From the NCBI GenBank assembly GCA_013820855.1, contig JACDHV010000003.1:1-43307 (forward strand): DNA of 43,307 nucleotides, written 5' to 3'. The stretch comes from Gemmatimonadales bacterium (GTDB taxonomy: Bacteria; Gemmatimonadota; Gemmatimonadetes; Gemmatimonadales; GWC2-71-9). The notes beneath the pieces are model-generated. The model was not told the DNA's origin and ran no database searches. It was given only the letters and a program-made list of their open reading frames with translations. This document shows positions 31,968 through 37,841 of this stretch, in pieces (position 1 is the first letter of the stretch; the number at the start of each line of letters is the position of its first letter). The position numbers were made by a program, and so were the translations under genes.

Positions 31968-33197
31968 CTACGCGGACCGGGCGGCCGCCTCTCCCGCCGC
32001 CCGGCCCGTCGCCCAGGCCCACAGAAAGTTGTAGCCGCCGATCGGGCCGAACGCGTCGAGCACCTCGCCGCAGATGAAGAGTCGGGGGTGGCGGCGGCTC
32101 TCCATGGTCCGCGGATCGATCTCCGCCAGGCTCACGCCGCCTCCCGTCACCTCCGCCTTCCGGTAGCCTTCGTCGCCGACCCAGGGCAGCTCGCCCCGCA
32201 CCAGCACGGAGATCAGTCGAAGCCGGTCCTCGCGGCGCAGCTGGGCCAGCGGATGGGACGCCGCTACGCCGGCCTGCATGGCGAGCGCGTCGGCGAGCCG
32301 CTCGGGCAGGTCGCGGCGGAGCACACCCGCCACCGTGCGCGTGCCCACCGGCTGGAGCGCCGACTCCCAACCCGCCTCGTCGCGCGCGGTCCACCGCACC
32401 GTGAGCCGGGCCGTGCCATCCGCCTCCTGGCGCGAGCGCACCAGGACGTGCGACACGTCCAGCACCGAGGGCCCGCTGTACCCGCGGTGGGTGAAGAGGA
32501 AGCCTCCCGAGGAGGCCGAGTGTCGGTGATCGCCACTCGCGCTGATGGTGACCGGGAGCGAGACACCGGCGAGCGCGCCGAATGGCGAGGGCCCGGCCAC
32601 GATCGGTGTCAGCGCCGCGTACGTCGGATGCAGGGTGTGCCCCAGCGCCCGCAGGATCGCGATCCCGCGGCCGTCACTTCCGGTGTTCGGGACCGACAGC
32701 CCGCCCGTCGCCACGACGACCGCATCCACCACGAGCGGCGCGGCGCCCTCGCGCTCGACCTCCCACCCGCGGGCGCGAGGAGCGAGACCGGTGACGAGCG
32801 TATCCGGCACGAAGCGCGCCCCCGCGCGGGCCGCCAGCGTCAGCAGGCCGTCGCGCACGTCGCGAGCGCGGTGCGAGGCCGGGAAGAGCTTCGCGGACTC
32901 CGGCTCTTCCACCAGCGGCATCCCCAGCCCGCGCTCGAAGAAGGCGACCTGGTCCGCCAGCGGCCAGGAGCGGAGGATCTTGCGGAGCGTGTTGGGTGAG
33001 GAGTCGGTGACGAAGCGGCGCTCGTCCACCCGCGCCGGGAGGATGTTGCAGCGGCCGCCGCCACTGATGAGGATCTTTCGCCCACCGTCTCGCGTACGCT
33101 CGAGCAGCAGCGTCTCGGCACCGGCGGTGGCCGCGAAGATCGCCGCCAGCGTCCCCGCGGCACCGGCTCCGACTATGGCGACGCGGCGATTCCGGAT
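31968..33197 (-). CDS. BaiN/HI0933-family flavoprotein (start uncertain; frame open to 33365)
   Basis: VGAGAAG, GRKILISGGGRCN, ATGGLSVP.TGSDG, FTHRGYSGP, AEVTGGGV, GEVLD..GPIGGYN. Confidence 0.9.
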   Translation of the reverse strand: MRNRRVAIVGAGAAGTLAAIFAATAGAETLLLERTRDGGRKILISGGGRCNILPARVDERRFVTDSSPNTLRKILRSWPLADQVAFFERGLGMPLVEEPESAKLFPASHRARDVRDGLLTLAARAGARFVPDTLVTGLAPRARGWEVEREGAAPLVVDAVVVATGGLSVPNTGSDGRGIAILRALGHTLHPTYAALTPIVAGPSPFGALAGVSLPVTISASGDHRHSASSGGFLFTHRGYSGPSVLDVSHVLVRSRQEADGTARLTVRWTARDEAGWESALQPVGTRTVAGVLRRDLPERLADALAMQAGVAASHPLAQLRREDRLRLISVLVRGELPWVGDEGYRKAEVTGGGVSLAEIDPRTMESRRHPRLFICGEVLDAFGPIGGYNFLWAWATGRAAGEAAARSA

Positions 33198-33252
33198 AGC
33201 CCCTCCAGGATCGAATTCGACGAGTGAACGGCGGGCAGGAAACTTACTTCCC

Positions 33253-33281
33253 TTGTCCCGACAGGTCGGCGTTTCTAGTAT
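33253..33281 (+). promoter_or_regulatory. Sigma70-like promoter of the RLP-cupin operon
   Basis: TTGTCC-N17-TAGTAT in an AT-enriched divergent intergenic region. Confidence 0.55.
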
Positions 33282-33387
33282 TGGCCCCTGCCGCGTCGCC
33301 ATGGTCAGAGCCCGCGCGTCCTTCCCGCGTCCCACCGAGGTGTTCGTGCTAGTCCCGTCTCCCACCGCTCGACCCAGCCGCTGAGCC

Positions 33388-34482
33388 GTGGGAGACGCAC
33401 TGCGCGTGACCTATCTCGTCCGTGCCGCTGCCCGGGATATCGAGGCGAGGGCCGAGTCGTTGCTGCTCGAGCAGACCGTCGAGCTGCCGCGCTCGAGCCT
33501 TCGCGAGCCGGCCGTGGTGGAGCGGGTCCTGGGGCAGGTCGAGCGCGTCGAAGCAGGGAGCGAAGGCAGCCACCGGGTGACCGTCACCCATCCTCTCGTC
33601 ACCACCGCCTTCGACCCGGCCCAGCTCCTCAACGTGCTCTTCGGCAATTCCTCGTTGCAGCCTGACGTGGTCCTCGCGGATGTGGAGCTTCCCGATTCGG
33701 CGTTCGATTGGCTTCCCGGTCCGCGGGCCGGCGTCGCTGGGCTGCGCGCCCTCACTGGGGTCAGGAGCCGGCCGCTTCTCGCGACGGCCCTGAAGCCCAT
33801 GGGACTCGAGCCGAAGCAGCTCGGCGCGCTCTGCCGCACTTTCGCCGCCGCCGGGATCGACCTGGTGAAGGACGATCACGGCCTCGCGGACCATCCATTC
33901 TGTCCCTTCGAGGCACGGCTCGAGGCCGGCCTGCGCGCCACCGAGGGCACGCCGACGCTGTACGTGCCGAACCTGATCGGCACTCCGGAGCGCGTACTGA
34001 GACAGCTCGAGACCGCCCGAGCGGGGGGAGCGAAGGCGGTGCTGATCTCCCCGATGATCGTGGGCCTTCCCCTGCTGCACCAGCTGGCGACTCTCCCGGA
34101 CGGTCTGCCGATCGTCGCGCATCCGTCGCTGGCGGGGGTCCTCCGCGCGGAGTCGACGGTCGTGCTGGGCAAGCTGTTCCGCTGGTACGGCGCCGACGCG
34201 GTGATCTTTCCTCATGCCGGCGGCAGGTTCACCTTCGACATGGAGACGTGCCGAGCGCTGGCCCGGACGCTTCGCGCCCCGTCCTCCCGTGCTCGGCCGA
34301 GCTTTCCGGTTCCCGCTGGAGGGCTCGACGTCGATCGGGTCGAGGAGACGCTGGCCTTCTACGGCGCCGACAGCATCCTGTTGATCGGCCGCGGTCTCTA
34401 CGAGGCGGGCGAAGACCTCTACGAGCGGACCCGTGCGCTGGTGGCCCGGGTGGCCCGGGCGGCGTCCGCGGAGCGCGCATGA
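33388..34482 (+). CDS. RuBisCO-like protein (form IV, KDDH type)
   Basis: LEQTVE, NVLFGNSS, GPRAG..GLR, ALKPMGL, DLVKDDHGL, AHPS, GADAVIFP, FPVPAGG; 364 aa, shorter than true RbcL. Confidence 0.92.
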   Translation: MGDALRVTYLVRAAARDIEARAESLLLEQTVELPRSSLREPAVVERVLGQVERVEAGSEGSHRVTVTHPLVTTAFDPAQLLNVLFGNSSLQPDVVLADVELPDSAFDWLPGPRAGVAGLRALTGVRSRPLLATALKPMGLEPKQLGALCRTFAAAGIDLVKDDHGLADHPFCPFEARLEAGLRATEGTPTLYVPNLIGTPERVLRQLETARAGGAKAVLISPMIVGLPLLHQLATLPDGLPIVAHPSLAGVLRAESTVVLGKLFRWYGADAVIFPHAGGRFTFDMETCRALARTLRAPSSRARPSFPVPAGGLDVDRVEETLAFYGADSILLIGRGLYEAGEDLYERTRALVARVARAASAERA

Positions 34483-34922
34483 AGACGCACATTCGACGGA
34501 CCGGCGATGGCCGGTGGGAGGGTGTCCCGGTGTCCGCCTACAAGCCGGGCGGCACTCACTTCGCGGGAATTACGCGGCAGCTGCTGTTCGACGGCGGCGA
34601 AGGGCTGGGCTGTCAGCTGCGGTACTTCGAGATCGAGCCGGGCGGGCACTCCTCGCTCGAGCGGCACCGCCACGTGCACGCGATCATGGTGATCCGCGGC
34701 GAGGGAAGGGTACTGGTCGGCGACCGTGTGCTGGATCTCGCCACTCACGACCTCGTGCGCGTACCTCCGCTGACCTGGCATCAATTCCGGGCCGGCGAGG
34801 GTGAGCCGTTCGGCTTCCTCTGCATGGTCGACTGCGGGCGGGACACGCCGGAGCGGCCGGACGCCGGCGTCCTGGCGGAGCTGCGCCGCGATCCGGCGGT
34901 CGCGGACTTCATCCGGGTCTGA
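34479..34922 (+). CDS. Cupin (putative methylthio-xylulose-5-phosphate methylsulfurylase-like)
   Basis: ATGA overlap with the RLP; RYFEIEPGGHSSLERHRHVH...WHQF..PFGFLCMVD. Confidence 0.88.
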   Translation: MKTHIRRTGDGRWEGVPVSAYKPGGTHFAGITRQLLFDGGEGLGCQLRYFEIEPGGHSSLERHRHVHAIMVIRGEGRVLVGDRVLDLATHDLVRVPPLTWHQFRAGEGEPFGFLCMVDCGRDTPERPDAGVLAELRRDPAVADFIRV

Positions 34923-34969: not shown

Positions 34970-35551
34970 CTAGCGGTGCTCTCCCGTCGCGTTGCCGATG
35001 ACGGCCCCCAGGTCGTCGGGAGCGCGGTGCCGGCATTCGCGCCTGAGATCCTCGATGTCCGCCGAGAGGAAGGCGCCCAACAGGCCATCCATGGTGATCT
35101 CGAAGGCCGGCAGCTCCTTCTTGGCGACGCTGTTGGAGTACATCGCCAGCACCGCGCGCTCGTCGAAACGGTAGAAGGAGTACGTGGGATACCGCCCGAA
35201 CAGCCGCACCTGGATCGGCTTCTGGTACTCTCGAGCGAGGCGGGCGAAGTAGCGGTAGGCGTCCTCGACCATCGCGGGAATCAGCGGCCCATCGTCGAAG
35301 TGCTTCTCCAGCGAGAACATGAGCTCGTGGTTCTCCAGATCCGGCAGAAACACCTCCAGGCTCGTGCCTTCCCGGCCGAGAAACGCCTTGATCGCCGCGT
35401 CGTGATTCTCCCGCCAGCGCCGCGAGTGGATGAAGTACAGCACCATCGCGCTCGACGACCCGATGAGCTCATCGAACCGGTACACGAATCCGGCGAAGGT
35501 GCCGACCCGAACGATCCCGGGAGGCTCGGGCACGAGGGGTGTGGACGTCAT
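34970..35551 (-). CDS. Hypothetical protein (193 aa)
   Basis: Normal globular composition and GC3 bias; has its own promoter. Confidence 0.75.
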   Translation of the reverse strand: MTSTPLVPEPPGIVRVGTFAGFVYRFDELIGSSSAMVLYFIHSRRWRENHDAAIKAFLGREGTSLEVFLPDLENHELMFSLEKHFDDGPLIPAMVEDAYRYFARLAREYQKPIQVRLFGRYPTYSFYRFDERAVLAMYSNSVAKKELPAFEITMDGLLGAFLSADIEDLRRECRHRAPDDLGAVIGNATGEHR

Positions 35552-35635: not shown

Positions 35636-36082
35636 GCCGAGGCCGATCTGGAGCACGCGGCCCGCGTAGACCCGCAGTCCGCCGAGGTGATCGGCGACCT
35701 CGGCGCGATCTACACCAGACTCCGGCGGTACCGGGAGGCCCGCGCCGCCCTCGAACGGGCCCGGGTGCTTCGGCCGTCCAGCTTGAGCCTGGCCCATGCC
35801 CGTGCGCGCCTCGCCGCGATGGAGGGCGACCTCGAGGGCATTCGCCAGGTGTTCCGCTCGATGGAGGAGATCGTGGGGCGGCGCCGCGTAGTGGCATACG
35901 TGGCGCTGAGGGAGGACCTGATCTGGGCACTCGACGACGAGGCTCGCCGCGCGGTGCTGGAGCTGACACCCGCATCCACGTTCTCGCCGGCAGGCCCGAG
36001 GAGGCGATCGACCGCCTCGTGGCGCTGGCCGACGAGCCGGGCCTCCGATCGGGACCGCTCTTCCGGATCGATGCCAGTTTAG
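35636..36082 (+). pseudogene. TPR-repeat fragment without a start
   Basis: AEADLEHAARVDP..LGAIYTRLRRYREARAALERARVLRP; frame change near 35975. Confidence 0.55.
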
Positions 36083-37494
36083 GGAAAGATGCCGAGCTGC
36101 TCGTAGCTCAACGCCACCTTGTCGATCGCGACGATCATCGCCGCGGTGCGCATGATCTCCTTCCCTCCCAGTTGCTTCCAGACTTCACGAATGGGGTGGT
36201 AGGCGCCGATCATCGTCTCTTCCAGACCCGAGTTCACCAGGTCCTCCTCGCTCGCGCCATGGGTCACGCGCTCCACCTCCTCGGGCGTGAAGCGGCGGCC
36301 GGTCACCCCCTCCACCGCTTCCAGCAGCCGGGTGTAGGCTCCCTGCTCGAAGCGCTTCTGCATCCGGCCGAAGCGCACGTGGCTGAGGTTCTTGACCCAC
36401 TCGAAATACGAGACCGTCACCCCGCCGGCGTTGATGTAGGAGTCGGGGATTACCATGATCCCGCGCGCCGCCAGGATCTCGTCCGCCTCGACCGTGGTGG
36501 GACCATTCGCGGCCTCGACGACCATCTTCGTCCTGAGCCGTGGCGCGTTCTCCGCGGTGATCTGCCGTTCCAGCGCTGCCGGGATCAGGATGTCGCACTC
36601 GAGCTCCAGCGCCTCTTCCCGGCGGGCGAGACTGGTGGCCCCCGGGAAGTCCAGAATGCTCCCGCGCTCCTTGCGGTGCGCCATCACCGCTTCGAGGTCG
36701 AGTCCCTTGTCGCACGCGATGGCCCCCTCGGATTCCGACAGCCCGACCAGCACCGCGCCGGCCCGCTGAAAGAATTGCGCGGCGTGATACCCCACGTTGC
36801 CGAGGCCCTGCAGCACGACGCGCTTTCCGGCGAGGCCGGGCGACATGCCGAGCGCCTTCATGTCCTCCTTCACGCTGCAGATCTCGCGGACCCCGAAGAA
36901 GACGCCGCGTCCGGTCGCCTCGACCCGCCCGCGAATGCCGCCTGCGCTCACCGGCTTGGCCGTGACGCAGCCGAGCGCGTCCAGCTCGCCGGGGCGAAGC
37001 TGGGTGTAGGTATCGGCGATCCAGGCCATCTCGCGGGGTCCCGTGCCGACGTCGGGGGCCGGCACGTCGAGACCGGGACCCATGAAGTTCTTCCGCACCA
37101 GCTCGAACACCATCCGGCGCGTGATCCGCTCCAGCTCACCGACGGAGTAGCGCTTCGCGTTGAGCCTGATCCCACCCTTGGCCCCGCCGAACGGCACGTC
37201 CACCAGCGCGCACTTGTACGTCATCAGCGCCGCCAGCGCCTGCACCTCCTCCGCGTCCACGGTCTCGGCGTACCGGATGCCGCCTTTGGTCGGAAGCTTG
37301 TGGTGGCTGTGCTCGGCCCGCCAGGCATGCATCACCTCGATGCGGCCGTCGTCCCGTTTGATCGGGAAGCTGGTATAGAAGAGATTTTTGCACGCCCGGA
37401 TGTTGGCGAGCAGGGTGGGGTCGTGGTCGGTGAACCCGGCCGCGTGGTCGAAGGCCCGGTTGACCTGCTCGAGGAAGCTGGAGCCGAGGGACAT
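36079..37494 (-). CDS. gdhA: Glutamate dehydrogenase (Glu/Leu/Phe/Val family), 471 aa
   Basis: KGGIRY, MTYKCA, PFGGAKGG, DVPAPD, GRVEATGRG, QGLGNVG, EAANGP, NAGGVTVSYFEW. Confidence 0.93.
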   Translation of the reverse strand: MSLGSSFLEQVNRAFDHAAGFTDHDPTLLANIRACKNLFYTSFPIKRDDGRIEVMHAWRAEHSHHKLPTKGGIRYAETVDAEEVQALAALMTYKCALVDVPFGGAKGGIRLNAKRYSVGELERITRRMVFELVRKNFMGPGLDVPAPDVGTGPREMAWIADTYTQLRPGELDALGCVTAKPVSAGGIRGRVEATGRGVFFGVREICSVKEDMKALGMSPGLAGKRVVLQGLGNVGYHAAQFFQRAGAVLVGLSESEGAIACDKGLDLEAVMAHRKERGSILDFPGATSLARREEALELECDILIPAALERQITAENAPRLRTKMVVEAANGPTTVEADEILAARGIMVIPDSYINAGGVTVSYFEWVKNLSHVRFGRMQKRFEQGAYTRLLEAVEGVTGRRFTPEEVERVTHGASEEDLVNSGLEETMIGAYHPIREVWKQLGGKEIMRTAAMIVAIDKVALSYEQLGIFP

Positions 37495-37595
37495 GAGTGC
37501 TTTCTCGCGGAGAGCGAGGGAGGGTGGAGGGGTGGGACGAATATAGACGGGAGCCCGCCGGACGGAGGCCGCGCGACGCCGGCGAGGACTTCGGC

Positions 37596-37841
37596 TCAGG
37601 CCGCGCGCTCGCGCCACCCCGCCGCGAGCAGGCTCCCGATCACCATCAGCGTCACGGCGAGGATGGCGAACGCCGCATAGCTTCGCAGGGCGCGCCGTCG
37701 ATATTCCATCCCGCGGGGCGTCAGCCGCTCGGGCGTCCACGCGATCTCGAGCGGGCTCACACCCGGGCGCCGATGGCGCACCATCTGCACATAGCAGTAG
37801 ACCCCATGGGCCCACAGGGCGATCGCGAGGGCCGCGGCCAC
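37596..37841 (-). CDS. Small two-TM membrane protein (5' end possibly frameshifted near 37868)
   Basis: Two hydrophobic segments around LTPRGMEYRRRA. Confidence 0.55.
   Translation of the reverse strand: MAAALAIALWAHGVYCYVQMVRHRRPGVSPLEIAWTPERLTPRGMEYRRRALRSYAAFAILAVTLMVIGSLLAAGWRERAA

Follow-up and report, generated by a model that had tools for sequence, protein, structure and literature searches.

The locus described here raises the question of whether a RuBisCO-like protein (RLP) and a cupin, encoded side by side in a Gemmatimonadales genome, act in the MTA-isoprenoid shunt, and from which source such a pathway would be fed. Both genes lie in a stretch of 43,307 nucleotides from contig JACDHV010000003.1 (assembly GCA_013820855.1), here called the window, that belongs to a metagenome-assembled genome (MAG) with a completeness of 94%. 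The two frames have the GC3 bias typical of real genes (0.85 for the RLP, on a contig of 70% GC) and form a self-contained pair with no co-oriented neighbour (Table 1). Upstream, a gene for an HI0933-like flavoprotein (31968-33365, minus strand) runs divergently, and downstream a 193-aa ORF without Pfam match (34970-35551, minus strand) is convergent. The gap in front of the RLP gene is probably longer in reality than the ORF list gives, because the Pfam match of the HI0933-like protein begins at residue 61. No sigma-70-like site was found at this gap, terminator-like sites are no commoner than chance (a single one, located within the RLP gene; shuffles give 0.6) and the window holds no Rfam families. 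The genes that flank the pair, both here and in four relatives, are unrelated to it and comprise peptidases, a kinase, an ABC permease, a methyltransferase and an SDR. The short overlap itself recurs: both genes were located in 11 related loci, and in 8 of these (L012-L015, L020, L023-L025) stop and start codons overlap by 1-4 bases, an arrangement by which RLP and cupin would be made together. Thus, the initial annotation, which had described a 364-aa RLP with a KDDHGL motif, joined by an ATGA overlap to a 147-aa cupin in a minimal two-gene operon of an apparently non-proteobacterial genome, is borne out on all these points. VKDDHGL occupies residues 160-166 of the RLP, and the three quoted cupin motifs are present as HSSLERHRHVH (57-67), WHQF (100-103) and FLCMVD (113-118).

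Table 1. Positions of the RLP-cupin pair and adjoining features in the window.
Feature	Position	Strand	Basis and predicted role
RuBisCO-like protein (RLP), DeepYkr type	33388..34482	+	ORF with GTG start, 364 aa; PF00016; 3qfw match; predicted 5-methylthioribulose-1-phosphate 1,3-isomerase
Cupin	34479..34922	+	ATG start, 147 aa; Cupin_2; 3kgz/3ibm/3jzv matches; predicted 1-methylthio-xylulose-5-phosphate methylsulfurylase
ATGA overlap of RLP stop and cupin start (putative translational coupling)	34479..34482	+	Sequence inspection; 1-4 base overlap in related loci
Gap to divergent HI0933-like gene (longest-ORF call)	33366..33387		ORF list

The RLP is the sole RuBisCO-family gene of the MAG and matches the Pfam family RuBisCO_large (PF00016) with an E-value of 2.7e-13 (50.3 bits, cut-off 30.1). 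Among solved structures it matches PDB 3qfw best (E 7.7e-89, 301 bits, residues 7-357), with about 161 of 351 positions identical (~46%, counted on the printed match line). We take 3qfw to be RLP1 of R. palustris; the structure record itself reads RuBisCO large subunit. It has also been termed an RLP structure (PMC13454268). Other solved chains score far lower, with 104-128 bits for YkrW-type enolases, 85-92 for Photo-type RLPs and 81 for a form III chain. By this score ranking against PDB chains, which is not a phylogeny with named reference RLPs, the protein is closer to the DeepYkr member 3qfw than to YkrW, Photo and form III chains, in line with the DeepYkr type originally proposed. The K-D-D stretch, presumably the carbamate lysine and metal-binding aspartates, is conserved in all 22 aligned RLP relatives and followed by His in 16 of them. 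In the RLP, as in 3qfw, this His takes the place of the Glu of K-D-D-E, and K-P-K, which we take to be a RuBisCO residue motif, reads K-P-M. The length of 364 aa, the K-D-D-H sequence and scores of no more than 91 bits against form I-III chains led us to dismiss a true RuBisCO.

The cupin carries a Pfam Cupin_2 domain (1.5e-12) and finds three solved structures with high significance, 3kgz (3.1e-47), 3ibm (1.8e-41) and 3jzv (2.6e-41). The depositors of 3jzv named it 'Rru_A2000', and the alignment with it covers residues 11-145 of 147, with about 70 of 135 positions identical (~52%, own count). Identity to 3kgz, a protein of R. palustris (PMC3293032), is about 54% (own count). All 12 aligned cupins retain the motif LE(R/Q)HxHxH, the His of the second motif and the Cys of GF(L/V)C; the first two of these features also occur in the PDB chains 3kgz, 3ibm and 3jzv. 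At the sequence level the cupin is therefore a clear relative of Rru_A2000, the characterised methylsulfurylase of R. rubrum, as had been expected for it.

On this basis the pair probably belongs to the core of the known MTA-isoprenoid shunt, a pathway that turns methylthioadenosine (MTA), a by-product of SAM use, into methanethiol and a precursor of isoprenoids. The core leads from 5-methylthioribulose-1-phosphate (MTRu-1P) via 1-methylthio-xylulose-5-phosphate (MTXu-5P) to 1-deoxy-xylulose-5-phosphate (DXP). The product of MtnA, MTRu-1P, would undergo a 1,3-isomerisation (carbonyl shift) by the RLP to MTXu-5P, from which the metal-dependent cupin would remove the methylthio group with a thiol as co-substrate. 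The resulting DXP would enter the MEP pathway, and methanethiol or a methylthio-thiol adduct may be passed on to sulfur recovery. Several parts of this route are encoded in the MAG. The mtnA gene is present (TIGR00512, 300.1 bits, cut-off 279), though truncated at a contig end, and both MEP genes searched are well over their cut-offs (dxs 752.7 bits against 465.95; dxr 405.9 bits against 315.7). No stand-alone class II aldolase of MtnB or Ald2 type was found in the MAG, the only class II aldolase being of the bifunctional RhaD/SDR type, so that there is no other recognised exit from the product of MtnA. MtnX was likewise not found in the MAG. On the side of sulfur recovery, the MAG encodes a cystathionine gamma-synthase (520.9 bits, cut-off 513) and a second Cys/Met PLP enzyme without assigned type. 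Neither reaches the cut-off of TIGR01326, and hence no O-acetylhomoserine sulfhydrylase over cut-off was found in the MAG by this model.

The route is less complete at its beginning. No MTA phosphorylase (MtnP) over cut-off was found in the MAG (best 90.9 bits, cut-off 274.85), and MtnN and MtnK gave no match there. The pathway is thus incomplete as found, its usual first enzyme missing from our searches. Of the partners that the initial annotation had named for the pair, the MTR-1P isomerase and the MEP genes dxs and dxr are encoded, but the MTA phosphorylase is not detected. A spermidine-synthase domain, found in 11 of 18 congeners, was not found in the MAG either. Within the genus, mtnA is followed by glpK and preceded by genes for an enoyl-CoA hydratase and RecF, and no PNP gene was found near it.

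The distribution of the genes in the phylum ties the pair to MtnA. Among 301 sampled Gemmatimonadota genomes, a DeepYkr-like RLP occurs in 47, and 37 of these also have a strong cupin match. The two genes are no more than 450 bases apart on the same contig in 36 of the 37. All 47 RLP genomes encode MtnA, as do 174 of the 254 others, a comparison in which kin in the sample are not independent. The genes for RLP, cupin and MtnA are clustered together in 11 genomes, all of one family. The pair is nevertheless dispensable, being absent from 10 of 18 sampled congeners that retain mtnA. A canonical MTA phosphorylase was found in none of the 47 RLP genomes (MTAP at E<=1e-40). Over the whole sample, MTAP is over cut-off in 11 genomes and MtnN in 5, beside 221 with mtnA, which points to a first methionine-salvage step without assigned enzyme.

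One explanation keeps the same enzymes and chemistry and changes the entry. MTRu-1P might arise by a route other than MtnP, with a paralogous purine nucleoside phosphorylase (PNP) of the PunA type cleaving MTA or its deaminated form methylthioinosine (MTI), and with a thiol other than glutathione at the cupin; we regard this as possible but less likely than not. The MAG has two PNP-family genes, for which the PunA-type model NF006054 gives 375 and 334 bits and the MTAP model 91 and 80. The loci of these two PunA-type PNPs are G000:C186:12634-13377 and C308:191-925. In addition to the scarcity of MTAP and MtnN beside a common mtnA, a second PunA-type copy is found in 170 of 221 mtnA-positive genomes, compared to 28 of 80 mtnA-negative ones. 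A tree of 42 PNPs places the two copies in separate clades (100/100), and the clade with the nupC-linked copy is the only one kept in 10 of 10 sampled single-copy genomes that lack mtnA and in 3 of 3 that have MTAP over cut-off, although the rows of this tree were picked from a top-150 list, not at random, and kin among them are not independent. The association is also imperfect: mtnA-negative genomes contribute three of the clade-I rows, and one family (f6) combines mtnA with a single clade-II PNP. Moreover, NCBIfam scores do not tell the two PNP copies of the MAG apart by MTA or MTI specificity. As to the thiol, the glutathione synthetase model GshB reaches 53.8 bits in the MAG (cut-off 299) and is over cut-off in 0 of the 19 genomes of the genus, consistent with a co-substrate other than glutathione. 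Extended to the phylum, these observations allow the tentative suggestion that Gemmatimonadota use an RLP-cupin branch of MTA salvage without the canonical MTA-cleaving enzyme and without glutathione, in which a distinct PunA-type PNP clade (in this MAG the copy G000:C186:12634-13377) replaces MtnP in most of the phylum and feeds MtnA, while the cupin works with another low-molecular-weight thiol. If true, a whole, abundant soil phylum would have exchanged the first enzyme of methionine salvage for a non-orthologous one.

A more distant explanation is that the pair acts on another sugar phosphate unrelated to MTA, in the manner of other RLP clades that use, for instance, tetronate or apiose-derived intermediates. 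The RLP clades are functionally diverse, the RLP has a weak partial NCBIfam match to an OiaX decarboxylase model (60.3 bits, cut-off 700), and the missing upstream steps of MTA salvage would fit such a role. However, for both proteins the nearest relatives with solved structures and characterised function are members of the MTA shunt, the link to mtnA holds both in the clusters and in the co-occurrence described above, and a cupin known for methylthio removal would be left without a role. We therefore consider this explanation unlikely. Least probable is an assignment of the RLP to the YkrW/MtnW-type enolases, which act on 2,3-diketo-5-methylthiopentyl-1-phosphate in classical methionine salvage: two MtnW enolase models are its best NCBIfam hits, but with 167.2 bits against a cut-off of 409 and 122.8 against 513.6 they stay far under cut-off, the enolase structures score well below 3qfw, the Glu of K-D-D-E that is kept in the aligned G. 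kaustophilus enolase is His in the RLP, and the MtnB-type dehydratase was not found among the class II aldolases of the MAG.

Assignment to the shunt core thus remains the preferred reading, and it gives the RLP genes of Gemmatimonadota a testable role. It also warns against using such genes as markers of carbon fixation (one listed homologue bears the NCBI label 'ribulose 1,5-bisphosphate carboxylase') and adds a possible source of methanethiol in soil. The initial annotation had placed the shunt here outside its described hosts. This is correct insofar as the host is not a proteobacterium, but overstated otherwise. Homologues of RLP, cupin, mtnP and mtnA are already mentioned for Firmicutes and Meiothermus (Miller et al. 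2018, PMC5893883), type IV RLPs appear in 72 Gemmatimonadota MAGs in a report whose relevant passages give them no function (PMC10581226), and 8 of 120 listed close homologues carry the JGI label 'S-methyl-5-thioribulose 1-phosphate isomerase'. We see in the pair a typical representative of a known system, in a phylum for which these sources had not named it; supplements (PMC4958253 Figure S6; PMC10663253 tables) may list more host taxa.

Several described systems can be compared with the pair. It shares with the YkrW/MtnW enolases of Bacillus and Geobacillus (PDB 2oek, 2zvi) the RLP fold and a predicted place in methylthio-sugar salvage downstream of MtnA. These enolases nonetheless catalyze another reaction, belong to another clade, keep K-D-D-E and need MtnB and MtnX, neither of which was found here. 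The best comparison is with R. rubrum, where Rru_A1998 is described as the RLP isomerase and Rru_A2000 as the characterised MTXu-5P sulfurylase (PMC4958253), and with R. palustris, where the pair RPA2169/RPA2170 is described as verified by knock-outs and metabolite analysis (PMC5893883). Rru_A1998 and RPA2169 (RLP1) are RLPs of the DeepYkr clade and act as 1,3-isomerases of MTRu-1P. There are differences. The host phylum here is Gemmatimonadota, and mtnP, which according to the accounts of both species adjoins mtnA in R. rubrum and R. palustris (PMC5893883, PMC4958253), was not found in this genome. Glutathione is given as the thiol co-substrate in vivo in R. rubrum (PMC4334135), while a recognisable glutathione synthetase was not found in the 19 genomes of this genus. 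Locus tags, the only basis for this point, suggest one gene between A1998 and A2000 in R. rubrum, whereas here the two genes overlap. The RLP continues after its motif with DHPFCPFE, a stretch common to MAG sequences of Myxococcota, Acidobacteriota and Nitrospira (5 of 5 in the alignment) and different in a second Gemmatimonadota lineage. The similarities concern both proteins and their setting. Like Rru_A1998 and RPA2169, the RLP has a RuBisCO large-subunit catalytic domain in a chain of the same size class (~365-378 aa), a cupin gene directly downstream and mtnA in the genome, and its K-D-D-H-G-L-A-D stretch is identical to that of 3qfw. The cupin shares with Rru_A2000 (3jzv) and the R. palustris cupin (3kgz) a single Cupin_2 domain, the His cluster, WHQF, GFLCMV, the C-terminal tail and a gene position just downstream of the RLP. 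RPA2169 and RPA2170 are reported to share just 53% and 56% identity with their R. rubrum counterparts (PMC5893883). With about 46% (RLP to 3qfw) and 52% (cupin to 3jzv) identity, the pair described here thus lies at roughly the same distance from the characterised enzymes as those do from each other.

Both reading frames described in the initial annotation are present in the window: a RuBisCO-like protein (RLP) carrying VKDDHGL, and a cupin with the motifs HSSLERHRHVH, WHQF and FLCMVD. The TGA stop codon of the RLP overlaps the ATG start codon of the cupin in the four common bases ATGA. The window, an entire contig (C23, 43,307 bases, ~70% G+C), belongs to a genome of 3.49 Mb in 363 contigs with a completeness estimate of 94%. 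Since both neighbours are encoded on the opposite strand, RLP and cupin form a self-contained two-gene unit. The longest frame of the flavoprotein upstream probably starts too early, with the true start further downstream (Pfam match from residue 61), and the same probably holds for a Glu/Leu/Phe/Val dehydrogenase at 36079-37815 (minus strand, Pfam match from residue 146). The 193-aa frame behind the cupin is without a Pfam match and has a strong coding bias (GC3 0.89). In the surroundings of the pair we found no Rfam family, no promoter-like site and no terminators above chance.

Features of the gene pair, its surroundings and related loci (G000, own genome; other G numbers, genomes of the Gemmatimonadota sample; C, contig)
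Feature	Position	Strand	Remarks
RLP	33388-34482	+	ORF, GTG start, 364 aa; Pfam RuBisCO_large 2.7e-13
Cupin	34479-34922	+	ORF, 147 aa; Pfam Cupin_2 1.5e-12
HI0933-like flavoprotein	31968-33365	-	upstream of RLP, divergent
ORF, 193 aa	34970-35551	-	downstream of cupin, convergent
mtnA	G000:C4:11017-11727	-	cut at contig end; then glycerol kinase
Class II aldolase-short-chain dehydrogenase fusion	G000:C245:12374-14368	-	RhaD-ADH-like, 489 bits, below cut-off 568
PunA-type PNP, clade I	G000:C186:12634-13377	-	outside window
PunA-type PNP, clade II	G000:C308:191-925	-	outside window; follows nupC nucleoside transporter
RLP-cupin-mtnA cluster, L022	G141:C1:3390233-3392954
RLP-cupin-mtnA cluster, L023	G079:C1:65688-68277

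In a search of all PDB sequences the RLP matched best to 3qfw, which we take to be R. palustris RLP1 (E 7.7e-89, 301 bits, residues 7-357; identity ~46%, counted on the alignment match line). YkrW-type enolases reached 104-128 bits in the same search, Photo-type RLPs 85-92 bits and the form III chain 2cwx 81 bits. 3qfw is described as an RLP structure (PMC13454268, in part). No model of the NCBIfam library claims the window RLP, the best being MtnW enolases at 167 bits (cut-off 409) and 123 bits (cut-off 514). Among 22 aligned RLPs, K-D-D is conserved in all, the next residue being His in 16, Gln in four and Glu in two. The cupin matches three solved cupins along its full length, namely 3kgz (3.1e-47, ~54% identical), which comes from R. 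palustris (PMC3293032), 3ibm from Halorhodospira halophila (1.8e-41) and 3jzv, which its depositors call Rru_A2000 (2.6e-41, ~52% identical). The motif LE(R/Q)HxHxH, the histidine of the second motif and the cysteine of GF(L/V)C are conserved in 12 of 12 aligned cupins.

A non-proteobacterial host had been proposed, and in the species-representative genome collection the nearest loci indeed lie in Gemmatimonadales MAGs (66-79% identical), followed by Myxococcota, Acidobacteriota and Nitrospira MAGs (34-49%). At least 120 clusters in the protein collection share at least 66% identity with the RLP; among the matches listed, eight of 120 clusters carry the JGI name 'S-methyl-5-thioribulose 1-phosphate isomerase', the other named ones are mostly called RuBisCO large chain and many are without a name. 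Within a sample of 301 Gemmatimonadota genomes, own genome included, 53 have an RLP match, 47 of them DeepYkr-like (at least 39% identity) and six of another type keeping K-D-D-E. A strong cupin match occurs in 37 of the 47, and in 36 of these 37 the cupin lies on the same contig, at most 450 bases from the RLP; in G160 the two genes are on separate contigs. Ten of the 301 genomes have a DeepYkr-like RLP without a strong cupin match (G056, G063, G093, G120, G127, G153, G232, G259, G281 and G296), and the reverse is seen in two. All four genomes of genus g19 have the RLP without a strong cupin match, and the RLP of G127 is interrupted by a TGA. The pair occurs patchily in its own genus, with 8 of 18 congeners sampled carrying it. 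Two Gemmatimonadota lineages appear in a tree of 21 RLPs, from which L019 was left out because a contig end cuts the gene. The lineage of the window RLP groups with Myxococcota and Acidobacteriota sequences (94/99), and the second lineage also has 3qfw as its best PDB match (229 bits vs 131 for an enolase). A second type of RLP, distant from this one, occurs in family f2 (L040 in G204:C3 and L041 in G255:C1); it is 30-35% identical to the window RLP, keeps K-D-D-E and has an insertion past the GxxS motif.

The pair would work on the product of MtnA. The search for mtnA suggested in the initial annotation found the gene in the genome, with 300.1 bits exceeding the curated cut-off of 279 although a contig end truncates the gene; the order mtnA-glpK is conserved in the three congeners examined. 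In the sample, mtnA occurs in 47 of 47 genomes with a DeepYkr-like RLP vs 174 of 254 others; related genomes are not independent, and a Fisher value is therefore no true probability here. In one family, f7, RLP, cupin and mtnA follow one another directly in 11 genomes (genera g78 and g79), flanked by unrelated peptidase, cytochrome and AHSA1-like genes, and these clusters lend independent genomic support, from within the phylum, to such a role. Of the MEP-pathway genes, dxs and dxr are both encoded, and the shunt would therefore add to the supply from Dxs, not take its place. The own genome has neither MtnB nor a stand-alone Ald2 that would compete for methylthioribulose-1-P; its sole class II aldolase is of the bifunctional RhaD/short-chain-dehydrogenase type. 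This fusion could provide a DHAP-shunt-like exit from MtnA's product. Of 19 genomes from the genus, 15 carry it.

The one unexplained feature of the pair's setting is the missing MTA-cleaving step. A search for mtnP, suggested at the outset, gave no MTA phosphorylase over cut-off in the own genome, and MtnN and MtnK were without a match in this 94% complete assembly. Across the 301 genomes, MTAP passes its cut-off in 11, MtnN in five and mtnA in 221, and at E<=1e-40 MTAP is absent from all 47 genomes with a DeepYkr-like RLP. The lack of these recognised MTA-cleaving enzymes is a trait of the phylum and not an assembly gap. A search of the own MAG for a spermidine-synthase domain found none; 11 of 18 congeners in a second draw have one, which makes an MTA source in the genus probable. 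In the congeners G304, G305, G306, G307, G315 and G175 this domain lies within open frames of ~1000-1080 aa. In the search for metY, no O-acetylhomoserine sulfhydrylase passed its cut-off in the own genome, which encodes a cystathionine gamma-synthase and one further, unassigned PLP enzyme. Glutathione synthetase exceeds its cut-off in none of 19 genomes of the genus; in R. rubrum the in vivo thiol is glutathione (PMC4334135, in part).

The only two PNP_UDP_1 family genes of the own genome are both PunA-type purine nucleoside phosphorylases (PNPs), a type present in 293 of 301 genomes and in at least two copies in 198. Two or more copies occur in 170 of 221 mtnA-positive vs 28 of 80 mtnA-negative genomes (mtnA, PunA and spermidine-synthase counts include the unpublished genomes G057, G157, G182, G097 and G303). 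A tree of 42 sequences splits into two clades (100/100); besides the two own copies it contains 40 regions, from 29 genomes, chosen out of the best 150 matches rather than drawn at random. The picture would be compatible with PNPs of clade I taking the place of MtnP. Among the sampled genomes with a single PNP, this copy belongs to clade II in all 10 that lack mtnA and in all three in which MTAP exceeds its cut-off. Clade I, with the own C186 copy, has 11 rows from mtnA-positive and three from mtnA-negative genomes. Overall this clade tracks mtnA, exceptions being the three negative rows and family f6, where mtnA occurs alongside a single clade-II PNP.

Homologues of RLP, cupin, mtnP and mtnA are known from 13 Proteobacteria, nine Firmicutes and two Meiothermus (PMC5893883, in part). 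Type IV RLPs have been reported in Gemmatimonadota MAGs with no function given in the available parts of the two papers (PMC8547001, PMC10581226), and the terms 'cupin', 'methylthio' and 'methionine salvage' are absent from the accessible text of the latter. The proposal of a shunt outside its described hosts therefore has to be narrowed, because Firmicutes and Meiothermus were already listed (PMC5893883, in part). For Gemmatimonadota, no link to the MTA-isoprenoid shunt was seen in the available text of the papers listed on the phylum and RuBisCO-like proteins. The claim that the chemistry equals that of R. rubrum is in part backed by the relatives of both proteins, mtnA, dxs and dxr, but the MTA-cleaving step was not found. 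Judged by homology, the system is the predicted core of the known MTA-isoprenoid shunt, and RLP and cupin quite probably catalyze the isomerase and methylsulfurylase reactions of the R. rubrum type. There, Rru_A1998 is the characterized 5-methylthioribulose-1-P isomerase and Rru_A2000 the 1-methylthio-xylulose-5-P sulfurylase (PMC4958253, in part). For the R. palustris pair RPA2169/RPA2170, confirmation came from knock-outs together with metabolite analysis (PMC5893883, in part). As the R. palustris and R. rubrum pairs are only 53% and 56% identical (PMC5893883, in part), the window pair is about as near to them as they are to each other.
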